From: Promethearchaeota archaeon
GTDB taxonomy: Archaea > Asgardarchaeota > Lokiarchaeia > Sigyniarchaeales > SOKP01
Direction: 5' to 3'
Length of the DNA: 64,000 nt
Assembly: GCA_016839705.1 (NCBI GenBank)
Contig: JAEOTR010000041.1
Location: 32,001-96,000 of the forward strand
The notes under the pieces were generated by a model. The model made no database searches, was not told where the DNA came from, and saw only the letters and a program-made list of their open reading frames with translations. The translations under genes were made by a program, and so were the position numbers. This document shows, piece after piece, positions 14,264 through 32,001 of the stretch. How positions within the stretch are numbered: the stretch's first letter is position 1; the number at the start of each line of letters is the position of its first letter.

Positions 14264-15640
14264 AATTATACTCATTTTATTTCAAATAATAATATCAACG
14301 ATGTTTTGTTGTAGTATTTGTGGCATTAGTCCGAATGCCTCTATCCCATCAACCGAAATGGCATTTGGGAATGCTTTTTTCATTATATTATATGCTCCAT
14401 TCACGTCAGCATTGAGTAGAACACCTTTGGAGGTTTTGAACAGACCTCTGGAAATTCTTTTTCCTACATAGGTTTCATGTTTTCCAATCGGTTCATTATC
14501 CAAGAAAGAGCATTTAGAAGTATGATTTTCATTAACAGTTAAAACATGAATTCCTTTTAATTGAGCTTTATATTCGATTTGTTTTACTAATTTCAAGAAA
14601 GGGATTTGCACAAATTTCTGATTATTTTTTTTTCCAATATTAATCTTCTGCTTCCATCCATGATTATAACCTATTATAATTGTTCCAATGTTATGTAAAG
14701 TGCAATATTCAATTATACTCTTAGAGATTCGATGAAATAATGTAGTAAGTTTATTGTTTCGAGTTAAATGGAGTTTTTGAATCCGTTTTGTATCATTAAA
14801 ATTGCCTTTCTTACTTTCAATACTCCTATAATATGCTAATTGCTTGTTATAATATTGATTTATAGATTTTATCATCCCACCCTTAATAATAAATGGTTTA
14901 CATCCATTATTATTTACAGCAGTTATGAGATTATTTAATCCTAAATCAATGCTTAGCAAATGATCTTTATCTAATCTTAAATCATTCTCTTTTTTTTCAT
15001 AAACAAGCTCAACTTTATATTTTACTCCTAAAGGGATTATCCTTACTTCTTTTAATCTTTCTGTAATTCTTGTTTTAATTGGGTTAATATTTACTCTTTT
15101 TGGAAAGTGTATATATCCTTGTTTTATCGTGCATTGCTGATTGGTGAAAATTACTACAGATTCCCCCTTTTTCTTTTTATATCCTGGAATTTTAGGTCTT
15201 CTTTTAAATTTCCTAAAATCAAGCCTATACTCCTTGAGACCTTTAAAATATGATTTCCAATTTCTGTTCACGTATTTGAGGATTTGCTGTGATGTCTGAG
15301 AAGGAAGACTTTGGTAAGCTTGTTTGTTTTTAAGAATGAAATCTAAGTCATAATAAGTTAAAAGATTATTGAGATTAAAAAAATCTTGTCTAACATACCA
15401 ATTAGCTAAATTGTAAAGGTTTTTAGCTAAATGACATATTGTTGATAATTCTAATGAATATTCTACTTGGATAACTTCAGTTAATCTCATTTTAATACTA
15501 GTGAAAAACCATTGCTATTTAATGAAATATAGTATCCATAATAACTGATTTTTCCAATAATAATATCAAATGAATACAAAAGATATAACTTATGGAAAAT
15601 ATATTTACTATAAAATAAATTAAAAAATTTGAAAATAAAT
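14264..15640 (-). mobile_element. TnpB-only (IS1341-like) insertion sequence; ends approximate
   Basis: tnpB without tnpA, located between convergent host genes. Confidence 0.6.
14282..15490 (-). CDS. tnpB: IS200/IS605-family RNA-guided endonuclease TnpB
   Basis: AKNLYNLA, LPSQTSQQ, RuvC-I SIDLGLNN, VNENHTSKCS, RuvC-III NADVNGAYNI. Confidence 0.92.
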   Translation of the reverse strand: MRLTEVIQVEYSLELSTICHLAKNLYNLANWYVRQDFFNLNNLLTYYDLDFILKNKQAYQSLPSQTSQQILKYVNRNWKSYFKGLKEYRLDFRKFKRRPKIPGYKKKKGESVVIFTNQQCTIKQGYIHFPKRVNINPIKTRITERLKEVRIIPLGVKYKVELVYEKKENDLRLDKDHLLSIDLGLNNLITAVNNNGCKPFIIKGGMIKSINQYYNKQLAYYRSIESKKGNFNDTKRIQKLHLTRNNKLTTLFHRISKSIIEYCTLHNIGTIIIGYNHGWKQKINIGKKNNQKFVQIPFLKLVKQIEYKAQLKGIHVLTVNENHTSKCSFLDNEPIGKHETYVGKRISRGLFKTSKGVLLNADVNGAYNIMKKAFPNAISVDGIEAFGLMPQILQQNIVDIII

Positions 15641-15642
15641 TG

Positions 15643-16059
15643 TTAGTCTTCAAGATCCATTTTAAATTGCTCGTAAATTTTTCTAACTCTGTCTGCCGAA
15701 GGCCCTTCTCCACGTACGCCTGATTCATCGACTATAATTTTCCCACTCAATATTGAGATTATGTTTTGATCTTCAATATAATTCACATGTCCTTTCGAGA
15801 AAATAGTGGCTATCCGTTCGCTAAGCGCAACCATAGGAAAGGGTTCTTCTTCTAAACTCACAAAATTATAAAAATTACTCCTTATAAACAATTTTGGGAA
15901 TGTTTTATTTTTTTCATTTTTCACATTAATAAGGATAAGGTTTGAATCTTCTGAGATTCCTTTTAATTGGCCAACAAAAAATTTATCCTTATCAATGTAT
16001 ACTTTAACGATTTTATCAATAAGCGTTGCTAACTCAGTATTATATTGTCTAAATGACAT
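15643..16059 (-). CDS. Lsm/SmAP family RNA-binding protein with C-terminal domain (SmAP3-like)
   Basis: Sm1/Sm2 pattern IDKIVKVYI..GQLKGI..NLILINV..LFIRSN plus C-terminal domain GEGPSADRV. Confidence 0.75.
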   Translation of the reverse strand: MSFRQYNTELATLIDKIVKVYIDKDKFFVGQLKGISEDSNLILINVKNEKNKTFPKLFIRSNFYNFVSLEEEPFPMVALSERIATIFSKGHVNYIEDQNIISILSGKIIVDESGVRGEGPSADRVRKIYEQFKMDLED

Positions 16060-16122: not shown

Positions 16123-16785
16123 TTAAATAAATAACTCATTTATTAGTTTCTCAATATTTTCTTCAGTTAAAGCACTTGTTGTAATAATCTTAAGGTTTGG
16201 ATTGATTTTTTCTGCATCTTTTATCATTTCTTCTATGTTTACATCCATTACATCTCTTAAATCTATTTTATTAATTACTGCTATATCCGAAGACTTGAAC
16301 AACATTGGATGTTTGCGTATAACCCATGGACCTTCTGTTATAGAAACTATAACTACTCTCTTATCAGCACCTAGTATAAAATCTGATGGGCAGATTAAAT
16401 TCCCAACATTCTCAATAAAAAGAATATCAATCTGCTGTAAATCATGATTTTTTATTACCTGCGAAATATGATACGAATTTAACGAACACTCTCTACCGGT
16501 GTTAATTTGAATTGAGGTAACTCCATGTTTACTAATTCTATCGGCATCAATTCTTGTAGTTACATCACCATTAATAACAAGAATTCGATATTCCTTGGAG
16601 ACCCTCCTTATTATCGCTTCGATTAGTGCTGTTTTTCCTGCACCAATTGCTCCTACGAAATCAATAGATTTTATTTTAAGTTCGTTTAAAACCTTCCTAT
16701 TTTTTTCAGCTAATCTATCATTATTAGCAAGTAAATCCTCATTTAACTCAATTACTTTGGAGATCTCCTTGTCAGACATTATCAA
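16123..16785 (-). CDS. hypB: Hydrogenase nickel incorporation GTPase HypB
   Basis: GAIGAGKT, INGD..DADRI, INTGRECSL, IENVGNLICP, NKID. Confidence 0.88.
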   Translation of the reverse strand: MIMSDKEISKVIELNEDLLANNDRLAEKNRKVLNELKIKSIDFVGAIGAGKTALIEAIIRRVSKEYRILVINGDVTTRIDADRISKHGVTSIQINTGRECSLNSYHISQVIKNHDLQQIDILFIENVGNLICPSDFILGADKRVVIVSITEGPWVIRKHPMLFKSSDIAVINKIDLRDVMDVNIEEMIKDAEKINPNLKIITTSALTEENIEKLINELFI

Positions 16786-16880: not shown

Positions 16881-17834
16881 TTATCTCCCTAATTGGATTC
16901 TATATACAATGTATGCTCCCAAAATCCCACCTAGATCCGGTAAATAAAACAAAATATATATAGGATCACTAAGCGCAAGTAATAACCCCGGCAATAATCT
17001 GAACAGGATTATTATATATAAAAATGTTCTTCCTTTCAATCTAATTGGAAGAAAATACATCATTGCAGTAATCTGTTGATTCATAATAGGAAAAAGTGAA
17101 TAAGACAATATTCCTAATATTCCACCCCACGCAAATCCAACAAATATTGAATTCTCAATCCTATCTATTGGTATATAAAAATGCAAAGATAATCTCATTA
17201 TAATATAAAACAACGCAGAAAATAAGCTACTTATGATATACAACTTAAATAAAAATTTAGGGCCTTTTCTTGCTTCAATATTTCTTGCCATAAAATAAAG
17301 AAACATTAACATTATAATCAATAAGAAAAATCCAAAAAAATCAATTTCACTTATAAAAAGACTTGTAATAAATGTATGGTAAGTAAAATCAAAGATTAGA
17401 CCGTATAAACTCAAATAAATATATTGAGGAAGCCCATAAAGACCAAAAATTATCCCAACAATTGAAAAAACGATAATCATTACAAATAATGTCTTTGTGC
17501 CTGAAAATTGAGTAGACTTTTTATAAAGTTGTTGGCTACTCTCATAAGTCTTTAAGGTTTTCTTTCTTTCTCGATCCTGTCTTTTTAGATATTTTTTTAA
17601 TGCCTTTGGGCCTTGATCTAAATATTCTTGAGATTTAGGTTTTTGTAAATCTACATCTGGATAGCGTTTCTTTGTGCTTTTTGGAGTGGTGGGTGCAACT
17701 GATACATGCTTTAATTCAAATGTACATTCATGATTTTCAGGCAATCTATGTTTCTTACAAAAAGTTCCACCACAATATTTACAAGTAAAAGGTAGATATC
17801 CAATCTGTTCACCACAAAACTCACAATACGTCAA
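16881..17834 (-). CDS. AN1 zinc finger fused to rhomboid-like membrane domain (apparently catalytically inactive)
   Basis: [28 protein letters not shown]; about 6 TM segments with IEARKGP, GFAWGG in place of GxSG and PDLGG in place of AHLGG. Confidence 0.7.
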
Positions 17835-18013
17835 TATGAATCACAGTAGAATTTTTCAATCGTTTACCTTTTGGTTTGATAAAAAAGTACCCATAATATA
17901 ATTTTAAAAAATTATTATCCTTGATAATTTTTTAGGTTTTTTTTGTTATTTTAAATTATTATTTGAATTTCTAAGTCTTCAAAAAGAAATTCAGATTGTA
18001 AATCAACTGAAGA

Positions 18014-18979
18014 TTAAAGTGTTATACCACCTTGAGTTAGAACTAAAGTTACAATCAACATTCCCACCAGAGATACGGCTAAGAATATGTAGACTTTTTT
18101 GTTCCACTTCCAAATATTTTGACCATCCAAAATCCCAATGGGGATCATATTAAACGAACCTAACATGAAATTTAAATAAGCAGAAACTACAAATAGGGGA
18201 CCTAATGGGTTAAGGCTTGAAGGGATTAAAAAAGCTATAATAAATAGAATAATCCCATAAACAAGGTTTACAGATGGTCCCGCTGCTTTACATAAACCTG
18301 TTTTTTTACTCACCTTTTCTAGCCCTAAAACTACAACTGCACCTGGTAAAGCTAAAGAAGGTATTGGTATATTTAATAGTCCAGCAACTAGTGAAATAAC
18401 AGTCAATAGCATACCGAATGTAAGAAGTCGAAATTTTGTCTGCAATTTAAAACGTAAAGCTACTTGTCGATGACCGAATTCATGGAAAAGAAAAGCTGTC
18501 ATGTAGATACCTGCTAGCATAAATGTTGTCCAACCATAACCTATGGCAAATAGAACTGGATCATAAAAGATCATAACTCCTATAACGAAAATCAAAACTG
18601 AGGCTATTACAAAATGTATTAACTCTGATAAATGTGGAAATAAGATTCCCTTAAACTTTATCCCGGAATCGGGTTCAAAAGCATTTGCAGGAACGTGAGT
18701 TTCTTGACGAAACCATGTATAAGTCCCGTCTGTTGTCCCACGAGCTACACCCGGAGGTGATTGTTGATACTCCTGTACATGGTGAGTGGGTGAAATTTGA
18801 GTAGATTCAGTATAAGAACTCGTAGGAGGTTGCACTTGTGGAATATTCAGAGCCTCCCTGACAATATTACATTCATGATCTATTGGATCTTTATGAAAAG
18901 AACAATAATCTTGACTACAATTGCTACAAAAAAAAGGTTCTCCCATAATTTCATTTCCACAGTGAGCACATCTTACCAT
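18014..18979 (-). CDS. AN1 zinc finger fused to M50 (site-2 protease family) metalloprotease
   Basis: CAHC..CSNC..YCSFH..HEC; HEFGH, AAGPSVN, FNMIPIGILDG. Confidence 0.85.
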   Translation of the reverse strand: MVRCAHCGNEIMGEPFFCSNCSQDYCSFHKDPIDHECNIVREALNIPQVQPPTSSYTESTQISPTHHVQEYQQSPPGVARGTTDGTYTWFRQETHVPANAFEPDSGIKFKGILFPHLSELIHFVIASVLIFVIGVMIFYDPVLFAIGYGWTTFMLAGIYMTAFLFHEFGHRQVALRFKLQTKFRLLTFGMLLTVISLVAGLLNIPIPSLALPGAVVVLGLEKVSKKTGLCKAAGPSVNLVYGIILFIIAFLIPSSLNPLGPLFVVSAYLNFMLGSFNMIPIGILDGQNIWKWNKKVYIFLAVSLVGMLIVTLVLTQGGITL

Positions 18980-20085: not shown

Positions 20086-21330
20086 TTAGAAGACTTGTAC
20101 CTTTCCTGCTATTAAACGTCTTCTTAAGTCAAGAAAACTATCCTTGCTCATTTTTTCCTCAAAAACTTCATTCGCAATCTTTCTTACCGACTCAAAATTA
20201 ACATTTTCCGCTTCGATTAATTCTATACTCGCGATCCAAGGATCCGTAATAGGCCTTCCTATCTGAGAGAGCAATTTTACATGAGCTTCTGCTATGTCAC
20301 CTTGACCTAGTTGAAAAATTTCTCTTGCGATTTCCGTACTCAATACATTATAAAGTTTTCCCACATGATTAACTGGGTTTTTTCCACAAACCGCTTCTAA
20401 ACTCATAGTTCGGCAAGGAGTAATAAGGCCATTAGACCTATTGCCACGTCCTACTTCTCCATCATCTCCTGCTTCTGCTGAAGTGCCCGTAATTGTAAGA
20501 TACATGATTCCTTTCTCAATATTATCTGCGACATTAACCTGACAAGTAACATCGCGTTCTGGAATGATATCTGAAGCTAAATCTAAAACAGCGTCTTTAA
20601 TTTGATTTGTGTAACTCATATATTCACTTGCGTCTTCTATATATTTACTTACCATTGCTGCTGCTACGGTTATCCCAACTTCATCTCCAATTCTCTCCAC
20701 CATTATTTTAATATCCTCACCAGAACCTTTGCACTTCTTTTTGAATTTATTTGAATTAATCATCCTTTCAGCTTCTAAAGCAATTTTTTCAACATCAGAA
20801 TATGGGGCATAGCCCACTCCGAAACTAGTATCATTAGCAAGTGGAATATCCTCAGTATGATGTGATTCATCAAAAACTCCGGTTAAATCTATCGACCCGG
20901 GTCTAACCGCATAATCAAACTGAATATCTCGGTTTAAATCAAGGTTTCTAAATATTTCAGATAGTACTTTACGTTGTGTTTCAATACAGATAGTTGCGAC
21001 AGGAATATAATCGAGTTTATTAGACCCATCAGAACATTCTGTAAGAATTTGGTGTATTGCCCTTCCAACAATCAAGAAATATTGTGGTTGGATGATTAAG
21101 CCTCCACCAAATTCTGGTTTTGCAGTTCCTCCAACAAGAGCCGCTTTATCAACATTATGGTGGTACACACGATCGTAATTTTCAAGATAATAAGCACACA
21201 AGGCTCTTGAGCAGGCATCAGCAACTGCATCGCAAACCGTATCAGGATGTCCAATACCTTTCCTTTCAACAAGCTCCGGAAATTCGCTTTTTTCTATTGG
21301 TAAAAAACCGGCTTTCGTTACCTTTAACAC
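20086..21330 (-). CDS. mat: Archaeal-type S-adenosylmethionine synthetase
   Basis: [53 protein letters not shown]. Confidence 0.95.
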
Positions 21331-30912: not shown

Positions 30913-32001
30913 ATGTTTATAATTATGTCATCAAAGAAGTTCCTGTCAACAAAAAAAACAGCACAACAAACTATTTCTATTAGTCCTGCGCTTAAAGATT
31001 GGATAACAAGGTATGTCCGAGTAAATCACCAAAAAAATCAGAAAGATGATCGATATAAAAGTGTTTCAGCTTTCTATAATTATGTCATGGAAAAAACCCT
31101 GAGTCTATATAAAAAGGGAAAGACTCTGGACGATATTGAAAGAATTGAGGATAAAAAAATTAAAGATTTCTTTGATCGTTTTACATTTAAAGCTACAATT
31201 CCACTTTATGAAATGGTAATAGAGGATCACAAGTATTCGCCCTTTTCATTTGAATTTAATACCCGTTTTCTATTATTGTATTTAGATATGTTTAGGAGAG
31301 AAGTAAAATCACATAATTTTGAAGATGTCGACATTTTCTTCGAAAGGATAAGAAGTCGATATGCAAAGACTACAGTATCAAAAGAAATGAGATTAGACTT
31401 GTCTCTAGGTAATGATAGAGAACCTGCCAGGGGAATTTTAGAGTTTATCGGAAAATACAAGAATCTCCATTTTGAAAATTGTAAGTTTTTCGCTGCGGTT
31501 TTCGGTATCCTTGGAGTGCGAATTACTGATTTCATTTATTCACCAGATGATTATTATTGTCGATTAGAACTCCTTGAAACTGATCTTTTGTTTAACAGAG
31601 AAGATCTTGCAAAGAAAGAGAGACTGAAACTAATAGAAGAGAATGTAGAGTACATAATTAATTACGATAGGTTGCTCGAAGAAAAGGATATGTACCTGTG
31701 GGTGAAATTAGCTGACGATAATGAAGTATTTCTATCTTTCAAAAATCAAACCGCATTTAATAAATGGATTAAAACTATCGAGGTTCAATTGCAAAAATTT
31801 GGGAAGAAAGAAGAATTTTTAGAAAAAATATTATTATTCTTTAATAAACTTCATTGGATTGGAATTGAGAATAGGAAACACCTTTCTTTTCGAATTGAAC
31901 AAGTAATAGAAGAAACTAAAGAACAGAAACAGTATCTAATTAATTATCTTTCAAAATTTTCAAAAATCTCAGAAATGGAGGGAATTTATTACTTGAAATA
32001 G
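30913..32001 (+). CDS. Hypothetical regulator with N-terminal ribbon-helix-helix-like domain (paralog 2)
   Basis: QQTISISPALKDWI..YKSVSAFY; shared FENxKFxAAxFGxLG motif. Confidence 0.55.
   Translation: MFIIMSSKKFLSTKKTAQQTISISPALKDWITRYVRVNHQKNQKDDRYKSVSAFYNYVMEKTLSLYKKGKTLDDIERIEDKKIKDFFDRFTFKATIPLYEMVIEDHKYSPFSFEFNTRFLLLYLDMFRREVKSHNFEDVDIFFERIRSRYAKTTVSKEMRLDLSLGNDREPARGILEFIGKYKNLHFENCKFFAAVFGILGVRITDFIYSPDDYYCRLELLETDLLFNREDLAKKERLKLIEENVEYIINYDRLLEEKDMYLWVKLADDNEVFLSFKNQTAFNKWIKTIEVQLQKFGKKEEFLEKILLFFNKLHWIGIENRKHLSFRIEQVIEETKEQKQYLINYLSKFSKISEMEGIYYLK

Follow-up and report, generated by a model that had tools for sequence, protein, structure and literature searches.

A conserved rhomboid pseudoprotease with an AN1 finger, encoded beside an AN1-finger site-2 protease in Loki-type Asgard archaea

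Rhomboid pseudoproteases, the Derlins and iRhoms among them, are known from eukaryotes, as inventions serving the quality control and trafficking of membrane proteins. Derlins carry a p97/Cdc48-binding SHP box in a cytosolic C-terminal tail, eukaryotic AN1 zinc-finger proteins associate with the proteasome and p97, and Cuz1 and ZFAND5 in particular have been linked to both. Among archaeal rhomboids, Haloferax volcanii RhoII carries an AN1 finger (the literature searches made here gave no text stating so). Here, two adjacent genes were analysed in a stretch of 64,000 nucleotides, referred to as the window, that comprises positions 32,001 to 96,000 of JAEOTR010000041.1 (contig C25). The source assembly (GCA_016839705.1) spans 3.36 Mb, is 93% complete and has a GC content of about 30%; the host is a Loki-type Asgard archaeon. 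The upstream gene encodes a site-2 protease (S2P) of the M50 family and the downstream gene encodes a rhomboid-like membrane protein, referred to below as the dead rhomboid. The initial annotation, made from the letters of this DNA, had described the two as tandem, co-oriented genes that both open with an AN1 finger, and this arrangement was found on the minus strand at the coordinates given in Table 1. The two proteins probably act together on membrane proteins.

Identification of the membrane domain of the downstream protein relied on structure modelling and profile comparison. Against Pfam Rhomboid the protein scored 17.8 bits, below the cut-off of 22.6 (E 0.0039), and sequence searches of the PDB with the protein and with its family profile returned AN1 domains alone and no rhomboid or Derlin chain. 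An AlphaFold2 (AF2) model built from 25 homologues had a mean predicted local distance difference test score (pLDDT) of 71.4, with values of 75-93 in the transmembrane (TM) blocks. The model contains helices at residues 111-132, 166-190, 192-216, 235-250, 268-287 and 291-315 together with short helices at residues 143-158 in the loop between TM1 and TM2 (L1). The last helix stops 2 residues short of residue 317 and the protein thus ends at TM6. In a Foldseek search with this model the top ranks were all taken by members of the rhomboid superfamily at marginal E-values, none of them <=0.001. Comparison with GlpG and Derlin structures, a check put forward in the initial annotation, likewise returned the rhomboid fold: VIA-align placed human Derlin-1 (7czb_A, 180 residues aligned, 3.2 A) at Z 14.8 and GlpG (2xow, 170 aligned, 3.2 A) at Z 14.7, with iRhom1/2 at Z 11-12.7 and yeast Der1 at Z 9.7. 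Helical bundles may reach Z of about 14 through arrangement alone; the match is nevertheless considered a true rhomboid match because all 42 chains at Z>=8 belonged to the rhomboid superfamily, with the next chain at 5.3, and because the full domain was covered.

Alignment of the dead-rhomboid family with 21 active rhomboids by hhalign resulted in a probability of 98.8% and an E-value of 5.1e-17 over 162 columns. The 21 comprised 18 from other Asgard genomes, out of 20 fetched, the one from the host genome itself and 2 database hits. All 20 fetched sequences had GASG and HxxxN (20/20) and 19 of them had the His motif of the AHxGG type. The match emerged only with the 21-sequence alignment, as hhalign against one single rhomboid sequence gave a probability of 1.3%. 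Judged from the profiles and the model together, the downstream membrane domain has a rhomboid fold and is a rhomboid homologue, and its family joins the active archaeal rhomboids by sequence.

Active rhomboid serine proteases (MEROPS S54) have their catalytic Ser in GxSG on TM4 and their catalytic His in AHxGG on TM6, while HxxxN of TM2 stabilises the oxyanion; these residues are missing from this domain. The initial annotation had located the loss at GFAWG and PDLGG; these sites are indeed dead, but it is Trp (W236), not Ala, that aligns with the catalytic Ser, and Asp (D300) that aligns with the catalytic His. Proper alignment, named at the outset as a possible source of refutation, returned no Ser-His dyad. 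According to both hhalign and MAFFT the TM2 His is replaced by L171, the TM2 Asn by M175 and a conserved His further upstream by S162, and H153-T154 stand where the rhomboid of the same genome has the WR of L1. The loss was conserved across 80 loci, which were drawn from species-representative genomes and belong essentially to one order. The position of the catalytic Ser was occupied by W in 71, S in 3, T in 2, Y in 2 and F in 1, with 1 gap, and that of the catalytic His by E in 48, D in 29 and A in 1, with 2 gaps and no His. Of the 78 loci without a gap there, 77 accordingly had an acidic residue in place of the His. The TM2 His position was F, L or I in 80/80 loci and the TM2 Asn position M, I or L in 80/80.

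The genome also encodes a separate canonical rhomboid without an AN1 finger that has WR, HxxxN, GASGA and AHIFG, which makes the dead copy an additional gene rather than a sole copy in decay. Mean column identity within the dead-rhomboid family was 59% (25 homologues). Such conservation, together with the acidic residue at the His position, argues for purifying selection on a non-catalytic role. As predicted from these alignments, the dead rhomboid cannot cut by the rhomboid mechanism and is conserved as a pseudoprotease instead of decaying. Database records name it either "AN1-type zinc finger domain-containing protein" or "rhomboid family serine protease", of which the latter is wrong for the window protein. 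A minority of related sequences (P0125, P0130, P0131, P0135, P0139 and P0140; L078, L080 and L081) keep the Ser in GLASGA and have Asp or Glu in place of the His; these may be intermediates on the way to the Trp-bearing form.

The upstream protein matched Pfam Peptidase_M50 at 33.6 bits (cut-off 27.2, E 3.3e-8). The intact HExxH...NxxPxxxLDG that had been read from its sequence was verified as HEFGH and NMIPIGILDG. Both HE[LF]GH and N..P...LDG were present in 71/71 orthologues, these being the sequences out of 75 that could be trimmed to a start codon (4 were dropped), and in an alignment of 53 orthologues, with a mean column identity of 67%, the motifs were invariant, including N277, P280, D285 and G286. 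The AF2 model of the protein (pLDDT 70.6) had as its top four Foldseek matches the S2P of M. jannaschii (3b4r_A, E 0.016, prob 1.00) and chain B of the same entry, followed by SpoIVFB in 8vjm (8vjm_A) and 8vjl; E-values were weak, none <=0.001. The 53-orthologue alignment further exposed a conserved cytosolic juxtamembrane segment that opens with RGTTDGTYTWFRQE and closes with FKGI, in which the columns R80, G81, T82, D84, G85, W89 ... F109, K110, G111 and I112 were invariant or nearly so. Its motifs mark the upstream protein as an intact intramembrane metalloprotease of the site-2 (M50) type, with predicted activity.

The AN1 fingers of the two proteins differ in how closely they follow the canonical domain. 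That of the dead rhomboid matched zf-AN1 (PF01428) at 44.8 bits, well over the cut-off of 27.9 (E 1.3e-11), and its ligands were invariant or nearly so in 25 homologues (C4 in at least 90% of rows). Its best sequence matches in the PDB were eukaryotic AN1 domains, namely 1wg2 (1.8e-9), Cuz1 5ij4 (3.5e-7) and proteasome-bound ZFAND5 7qxw_v (0.0028). The S2P finger scored 20.2 bits against the same profile (E 6.4e-4), below the cut-off, and was not listed by the genome-wide AN1 scan. All eight of its ligands (C4, C7, C18, C21, C26, H29, H35 and C37) were invariant in the 53 orthologues and the modelled finger matched the Cuz1 AN1 structure 5ij4 in Foldseek (prob 0.99, 40% identity). The dead-rhomboid finger, which is 86% identical within its family, was 58% identical to the AN1 of AN1-S2Ps in other Asgard families, as compared to an average of 41% for the finger of the neighbouring S2P, and it keeps the HRLPENH-type finger of ancestral AN1-S2Ps. 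This suggests that in this order the canonical AN1 function may have moved to, or come to be shared with, the dead rhomboid while the S2P finger diverged, and the asymmetry (58% versus 41%) fits a division of labour between the two proteins. The genome has a third AN1 protein of 165 amino acids (L002:1123-1620, minus strand, contig C18), soluble, with a canonical AN1 and a helical C-terminal part, that may compete or cooperate, from the cytosol, with the AN1 proteins of the membrane.

The dead rhomboid had 403 homologues and every source-named one bears an Asgard-lineage label. With the membrane domain alone, 62 out of 1.84 billion cluster representatives were matched at E<=0.001, the two weakest being active rhomboids. 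Scored with the close-family profile (E<=1e-20), the family was present in 37/40 genomes of the GTDB family of the window (f1) and in 3/3 of its sister family (f2), and in 0/157 genomes of 25 other Asgard families. As sampled, and by this profile, it is confined to the window's own order; Thor-, Hod-, Hermod- and Odinarchaeota labels on some NCBI records probably do not reflect a wide range. In a wider family of 52 members, 24 Pfam families were matched by any member: Rhomboid by 38, AN1 by 38 and DUF1751 (TMEM115) by 16, while DER1 was not among them (0 of 52).

The range of the dead-rhomboid family does not extend beyond that of this S2P subtype. In all loci for which 1.2 kb or more of upstream sequence was available (75/75), an AN1-S2P gene was located directly upstream on the same strand; the other 5 of the 80 loci end at a contig edge on that side. 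This count includes L059, whose stop-to-stop frames overlap, and the scripted count without it is 74. Two f2 genomes depart from the usual surroundings. In G089 the order is inverted, with the dead rhomboid followed by the S2P at a distance of 43 nt among other flanking genes, while G165 has the usual order with the S-adenosylmethionine synthetase (MAT) gene on the opposite strand. Adjacency has therefore survived local rearrangement.

A chimeric paralogue was observed at L212:3915-4847 (genome G177, contig C28). It carries an S2P-type N-terminus, that is a divergent AN1 and RGRTDGTYTWYR, on a rhomboid-like membrane domain in which W replaces the catalytic Ser and E the catalytic His. No S2P gene is present in the DNA fetched around it, which reaches about 3.9 kb in one direction and, up to the contig end, about 0.8 kb in the other. 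Parts have thus been exchanged between the S2P and rhomboid-like families.

We put forward that the genes encode a working pair, a proposal in which we place about as much confidence as doubt. The dead rhomboid would be a non-catalytic partner of the S2P, and AN1 would dock the pair to a cytosolic factor. Both polytopic membrane proteins are predicted to carry their N-terminal AN1 finger in the cytosol. The dead rhomboid could recognise or destabilise TM segments of clients and present them to the S2P, or it could gate the S2P, while its canonical AN1, perhaps along with that of the S2P, would provide the docking site for the cytosolic factor, for which an AAA+ unfoldase, Cdc48 for instance, is the leading candidate. 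Buried in TM6, the acidic residue that almost invariably replaces the catalytic His may, speculatively, serve to bind polar or charged groups of clients or partners. There are precedents for such a partnership. Derlin-1 is described in part of a preprint (bioRxiv 10.1101/322107) as the substrate receptor for signal peptide peptidase (SPP), and the iRhom-ADAM17 complexes 8snl and 9xy4 were among the fold matches obtained here. The rhomboid fold is also described in a review (PMC12615303) as thinning the membrane. In Haloferax, according to a section of PMC9263693, deletion of the rhomboid RhoII made the S2P homologue HVO_1870 more abundant.

The same components could instead serve extraction of the kind known from endoplasmic-reticulum-associated degradation (ERAD). 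The dead rhomboid would thin the membrane as Derlin does, the AN1 fingers would recruit Cdc48 or PAN with 20S, and clients would be extracted and degraded, with the S2P clipping them first or clearing remnants. We hold this to be rather unlikely. The fold is as near to Derlin-1 as to GlpG and the fingers resemble the AN1 of Cuz1 and ZFAND5. The AN1-Ubl protein Ynl155w has been placed in an ERAD subnetwork (PMC2691004, in part), and archaea including Asgard archaea have Cdc48 and 20S, with Cdc48-20S complexes known (PMC13328587, in part). Moreover, Cdc48 adjoins the AN1-S2P gene in 4/4 loci of Asgard family f15, convergently and 43-90 nt apart, and lies within about 0.6-2.7 kb of it in 8/11 loci of f7, the 3 exceptions being short or truncated contigs. 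In families f5, f13, f19 and f27, however, Cdc48 adjacency was found in 0/13 loci, and in the genome of the window the nearest of four Cdc48 genes lies about 52 kb from the pair. Among metagenome AN1-S2P loci Cdc48 was nearby in 1/80, or 1/22 of those with at least 3 kb on both sides, and consequently not nearby in 79 and 21, respectively; the sole such locus encodes a close relative of the f15 protein. Cdc48 adjacency was on this basis rejected as a general trait of AN1-S2Ps, and the AN1-Cdc48 connection via gene neighbourhood is lineage-restricted, suggestive but weak. The dead rhomboid also lacks a DER1 match, the WR motif and a C-terminal tail. Of the ERAD-like pair proposed in the initial annotation, the tandem AN1 genes, the intact M50 protease and the dead rhomboid stand, and the pairing is conserved; the ERAD-like part is a candidate role, with a specific link to Derlins not supported by the DER1 result and with Z to Derlin-1 and GlpG tied. 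Another possible role is that of a switch in regulated intramembrane proteolysis, in which the S2P cuts a membrane-tethered regulator and the dead rhomboid inhibits or gates it, the purpose being signalling and not quality control. BofA and SpoIVFA hold SpoIVFB in this manner, SpoIVFB was among the best fold matches of the S2P, the pair is tightly conserved, and bacterial S2Ps act mostly in signalling cascades (PMC9263693, in part). This role is nonetheless unlikely, as the conserved neighbours (HypB, LSm, MAT and the small zinc-ribbon proteins) include no candidate substrate or regulator and as it leaves an AN1 finger on both proteins unexplained.

Several observations weigh against a working pair, and most of them would fit two functionally independent genes whose adjacency is synteny inherited within one archaeal order. 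In most of the 80 loci synteny extends over a whole block of seven genes (MAT, zinc ribbon, LITAF-like, S2P, dead rhomboid, HypB and LSm). As the loci come essentially from one order and the family is confined to f1 and f2, a large share of the 75/75 adjacency may reflect inherited gene order. In the spacer between the genes, a T-run (tttcttttt) follows the S2P stop codon by about 20 nt and an A/T-rich, TATA-like stretch, aaaattatatta, precedes the TTG start by about 60 nt, elements for which DNA of 28% GC allows no statistics. In relatives the spacer measures 64-230 nt with a median of 157 (35 measured). Spacer length and these possible terminator and promoter elements make separate transcription of the two genes plausible. 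In four f1 genomes, divergent paralogues of the AN1-rhomboid-like type lack an S2P gene within about 3-4 kb (less at contig ends), and AN1-S2P proteins are widespread without any dead rhomboid. Independence is nevertheless judged distinctly unlikely: adjacency was kept despite changed flanks or order in G089 and G165, the same rare N-terminal domain is common to both proteins, and L212 joins an S2P-type N-terminus to a rhomboid-like membrane domain. It is also conceivable that the rhomboid-like protein is still a protease by way of other residues, such as the conserved Asp or Glu of TM6. The near-invariant acidic residue and the Ser kept in 3/80 loci and in the six P-numbered proteins listed above would agree with this, but Trp occupies the Ser position in the window protein and in 71/80 relatives, the TM2 His and Asn positions are all hydrophobic and the residues fit no known protease mechanism, which makes a residual protease extremely improbable. 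The working pair, with the dead rhomboid as non-catalytic partner of the S2P, is the reading we prefer.

The coordinates of both genes, their motifs and the conserved neighbours are collected in Table 1. The product of the small zinc-ribbon gene has a weak IBR (half-RING) match (E 0.0087), and in related loci this gene also adjoins that of S-adenosylmethionine synthetase. LITAF-like domains are familiar above all in endosomal proteins of eukaryotes; the LITAF-like gene of the window keeps its syntenic place in nearly all related loci. HypB and LSm are syntenic in most of the 80 loci and a functional tie of these to the pair is not evident. Past the LSm gene, an open reading frame (ORF) of 402 amino acids at 14282-15490 on the minus strand resembles, by sequence, a TnpB/OrfB-type transposon-associated nuclease.

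Table 1. Features of the AN1-finger gene pair, its neighbours in the window and Cdc48-linked loci of other Asgard genomes
Feature	Position	Strand	Basis or remark
AN1-finger M50/site-2 protease gene, 321 aa, ATG start, six predicted TM helices	18014..18979	-	ORF; Pfam Peptidase_M50
Divergent AN1 finger of S2P, residues 4-38	18866..18970	-	zf-AN1 sub-threshold + invariant ligands
Conserved cytosolic juxtamembrane segment of S2P, residues 80-112	18644..18742	-	53-orthologue alignment
HEFGH zinc-binding/catalytic motif, residues 166-170	18470..18484	-	translation checked
NMIPIGILDG, residues 277-286, third zinc ligand Asp285	18122..18151	-	translation checked
Intergenic spacer, 179 nt	17835..18013	.	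between AN1-S2P and dead-rhomboid genes
AN1-finger rhomboid-fold predicted pseudoprotease gene (dead rhomboid), 317 aa, TTG start	16881..17834	-	ORF
Canonical AN1 finger of dead rhomboid, residues 4-40	17715..17825	-	zf-AN1
Six-TM rhomboid-fold domain, residues 106-317	16884..17519	-	model alignment + hhalign
W236 codon, catalytic-Ser position (AWGG vs ASGA)	17127..17129	-	MAFFT alignment + hhalign
D300 codon, catalytic-His position (PDLGG vs AHVGG)	16935..16937	-	MAFFT alignment + hhalign
S-adenosylmethionine synthetase (MAT)	20086-21330	-	farthest upstream of seven-gene block
Small zinc-ribbon protein, 86 aa	19715-19975	-	lysine-rich, C-terminal CxxC...CxxC
LITAF-like zinc-ribbon membrane protein, 84 aa	19417-19671	+	Pfam 26.5 bits, cut-off 23.8, E 7.2e-6
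HypB (nickel-chaperone GTPase, cobW family)	16123-16785	-	begins 95 nt past dead-rhomboid gene
LSm protein with Lsm_C domain	15643-16059	-	after HypB
AN1-S2P loci with Cdc48 nearby (other Asgard genomes)	L087:6076-9159, L096-L098, L088, L089, L091-L093, L106-L108

Proteins with the AN1-S2P architecture were numerous, with 1741 database proteins at E<=1e-5; among the matches listed, 118/120 carry PF02163 and PF01428, and the sources named include Bathyarchaeia, Baldrarchaeia and Korarchaeota. Families f5 (L084, L090 and L094) and f27 (L102-L104) encode a second AN1 membrane protein, which was considered as a counterpart of the dead rhomboid and rejected, as the cores were M50-like. Four proteins at these loci (L094:5730-6644, L102:2128-3078, L103:2366-3358 and L104:5495-6466) combine an AN1 with an M50-like core that has lost HExxH and the Asp of LDG. 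They may be "pseudo-S2Ps" and would in that case be a second instance of AN1-tagged dead intramembrane proteases.

No paper on the dead-rhomboid family or on the pair was found in a literature search, article supplements lying outside its scope. What the locus adds is a conserved non-catalytic rhomboid in Loki-type Asgard archaea that bears a eukaryote-like AN1 and is encoded next to an AN1-tagged site-2 protease. Should the two proteins cooperate, they would form a compact two-gene system in which to study how a dead rhomboid assists another intramembrane protease, and they would make it possible to test whether AN1 was already bringing Cdc48 or the proteasome to membranes before eukaryotes arose. 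It is also imaginable, albeit doubtful, that the locus is a prokaryotic counterpart of ERAD that arose in the archaeal lineage closest to eukaryotes, in which the pseudoprotease would thin the membrane and select clients, the S2P would clip them and the AN1 fingers would tether Cdc48 (or PAN) and 20S. Were this true, the logic of a dead rhomboid combined with an intramembrane protease and AN1/Cdc48 would be older than the endoplasmic reticulum.

Among described systems, the dead rhomboid shares its layout with the active archaeal AN1-rhomboids, which likewise have an N-terminal AN1 followed by a six-TM rhomboid domain. An ESM Atlas cluster of 76 archaeal proteins, with Methanobacteriota as the commonest phylum, carried Rhomboid throughout (100%) and zf-AN1 in 92% of cases, and the AN1 profile also matched the H. 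volcanii control genome. Unlike these active proteins, the window protein has neither the Ser, the His nor the TM2 His/Asn and is paired with an AN1-S2P. With the Derlins (Der1, Dfm1 and Derlin-1) it shares the dead rhomboid fold, at Z 14.8 to human Derlin-1, as well as a cytosolic element that could recruit an unfoldase, and Derlin-1 also partners an intramembrane protease, SPP. The structural likeness does not tell Derlins from rhomboid proteases, as Z to Derlin-1 ties with that to GlpG (14.7) and falls to 9.7 for yeast Der1, and the window protein had no match to Pfam DER1 (PF04511) at E<=0.1. It differs from Derlins in having H-T in place of WR and in ending at TM6 without a C-terminal tail, its cytosolic module being the N-terminal AN1. 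Its origin differs as well: by sequence the dead rhomboid descends from archaeal rhomboids, whereas Der1/Dfm1 were traced to a bacterial symbiont in a passage of PMC2691004.

The iRhom1/2-ADAM17 system likewise combines a dead rhomboid with a zinc metalloprotease and has a cytosolic N-terminal regulatory region, with iRhom at Z 11-12.7. ADAM17 is, however, a single-pass ectodomain sheddase, unlike the intramembrane S2P, the iRhom homology domain is absent here, and there is no sequence-level link. A further candidate relative is TMEM115/DUF1751 (PF08551), a eukaryotic Golgi rhomboid-like family. The best of the 16 matches among the 52 wider-family members had an E-value of 2e-8, five of the 16 lay above the 22-bit cut-off and DUF1751 outscored Rhomboid in P0173 and P0177; the window protein itself had no match at E<=0.1. 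The active rhomboids P0181 and P0182 also matched DUF1751 weakly, and the signal may therefore be generic to rhomboids. Finally, archaeal AN1-S2Ps, deposited as "AN1-type zinc finger domain-containing protein" or "Zn-dependent protease", have the same architecture as the upstream gene product. What sets the order of the window apart from other AN1-S2Ps is the diverged AN1 (41%), the conserved RGTTDGTYTW juxtamembrane motif and the dead-rhomboid gene alongside.

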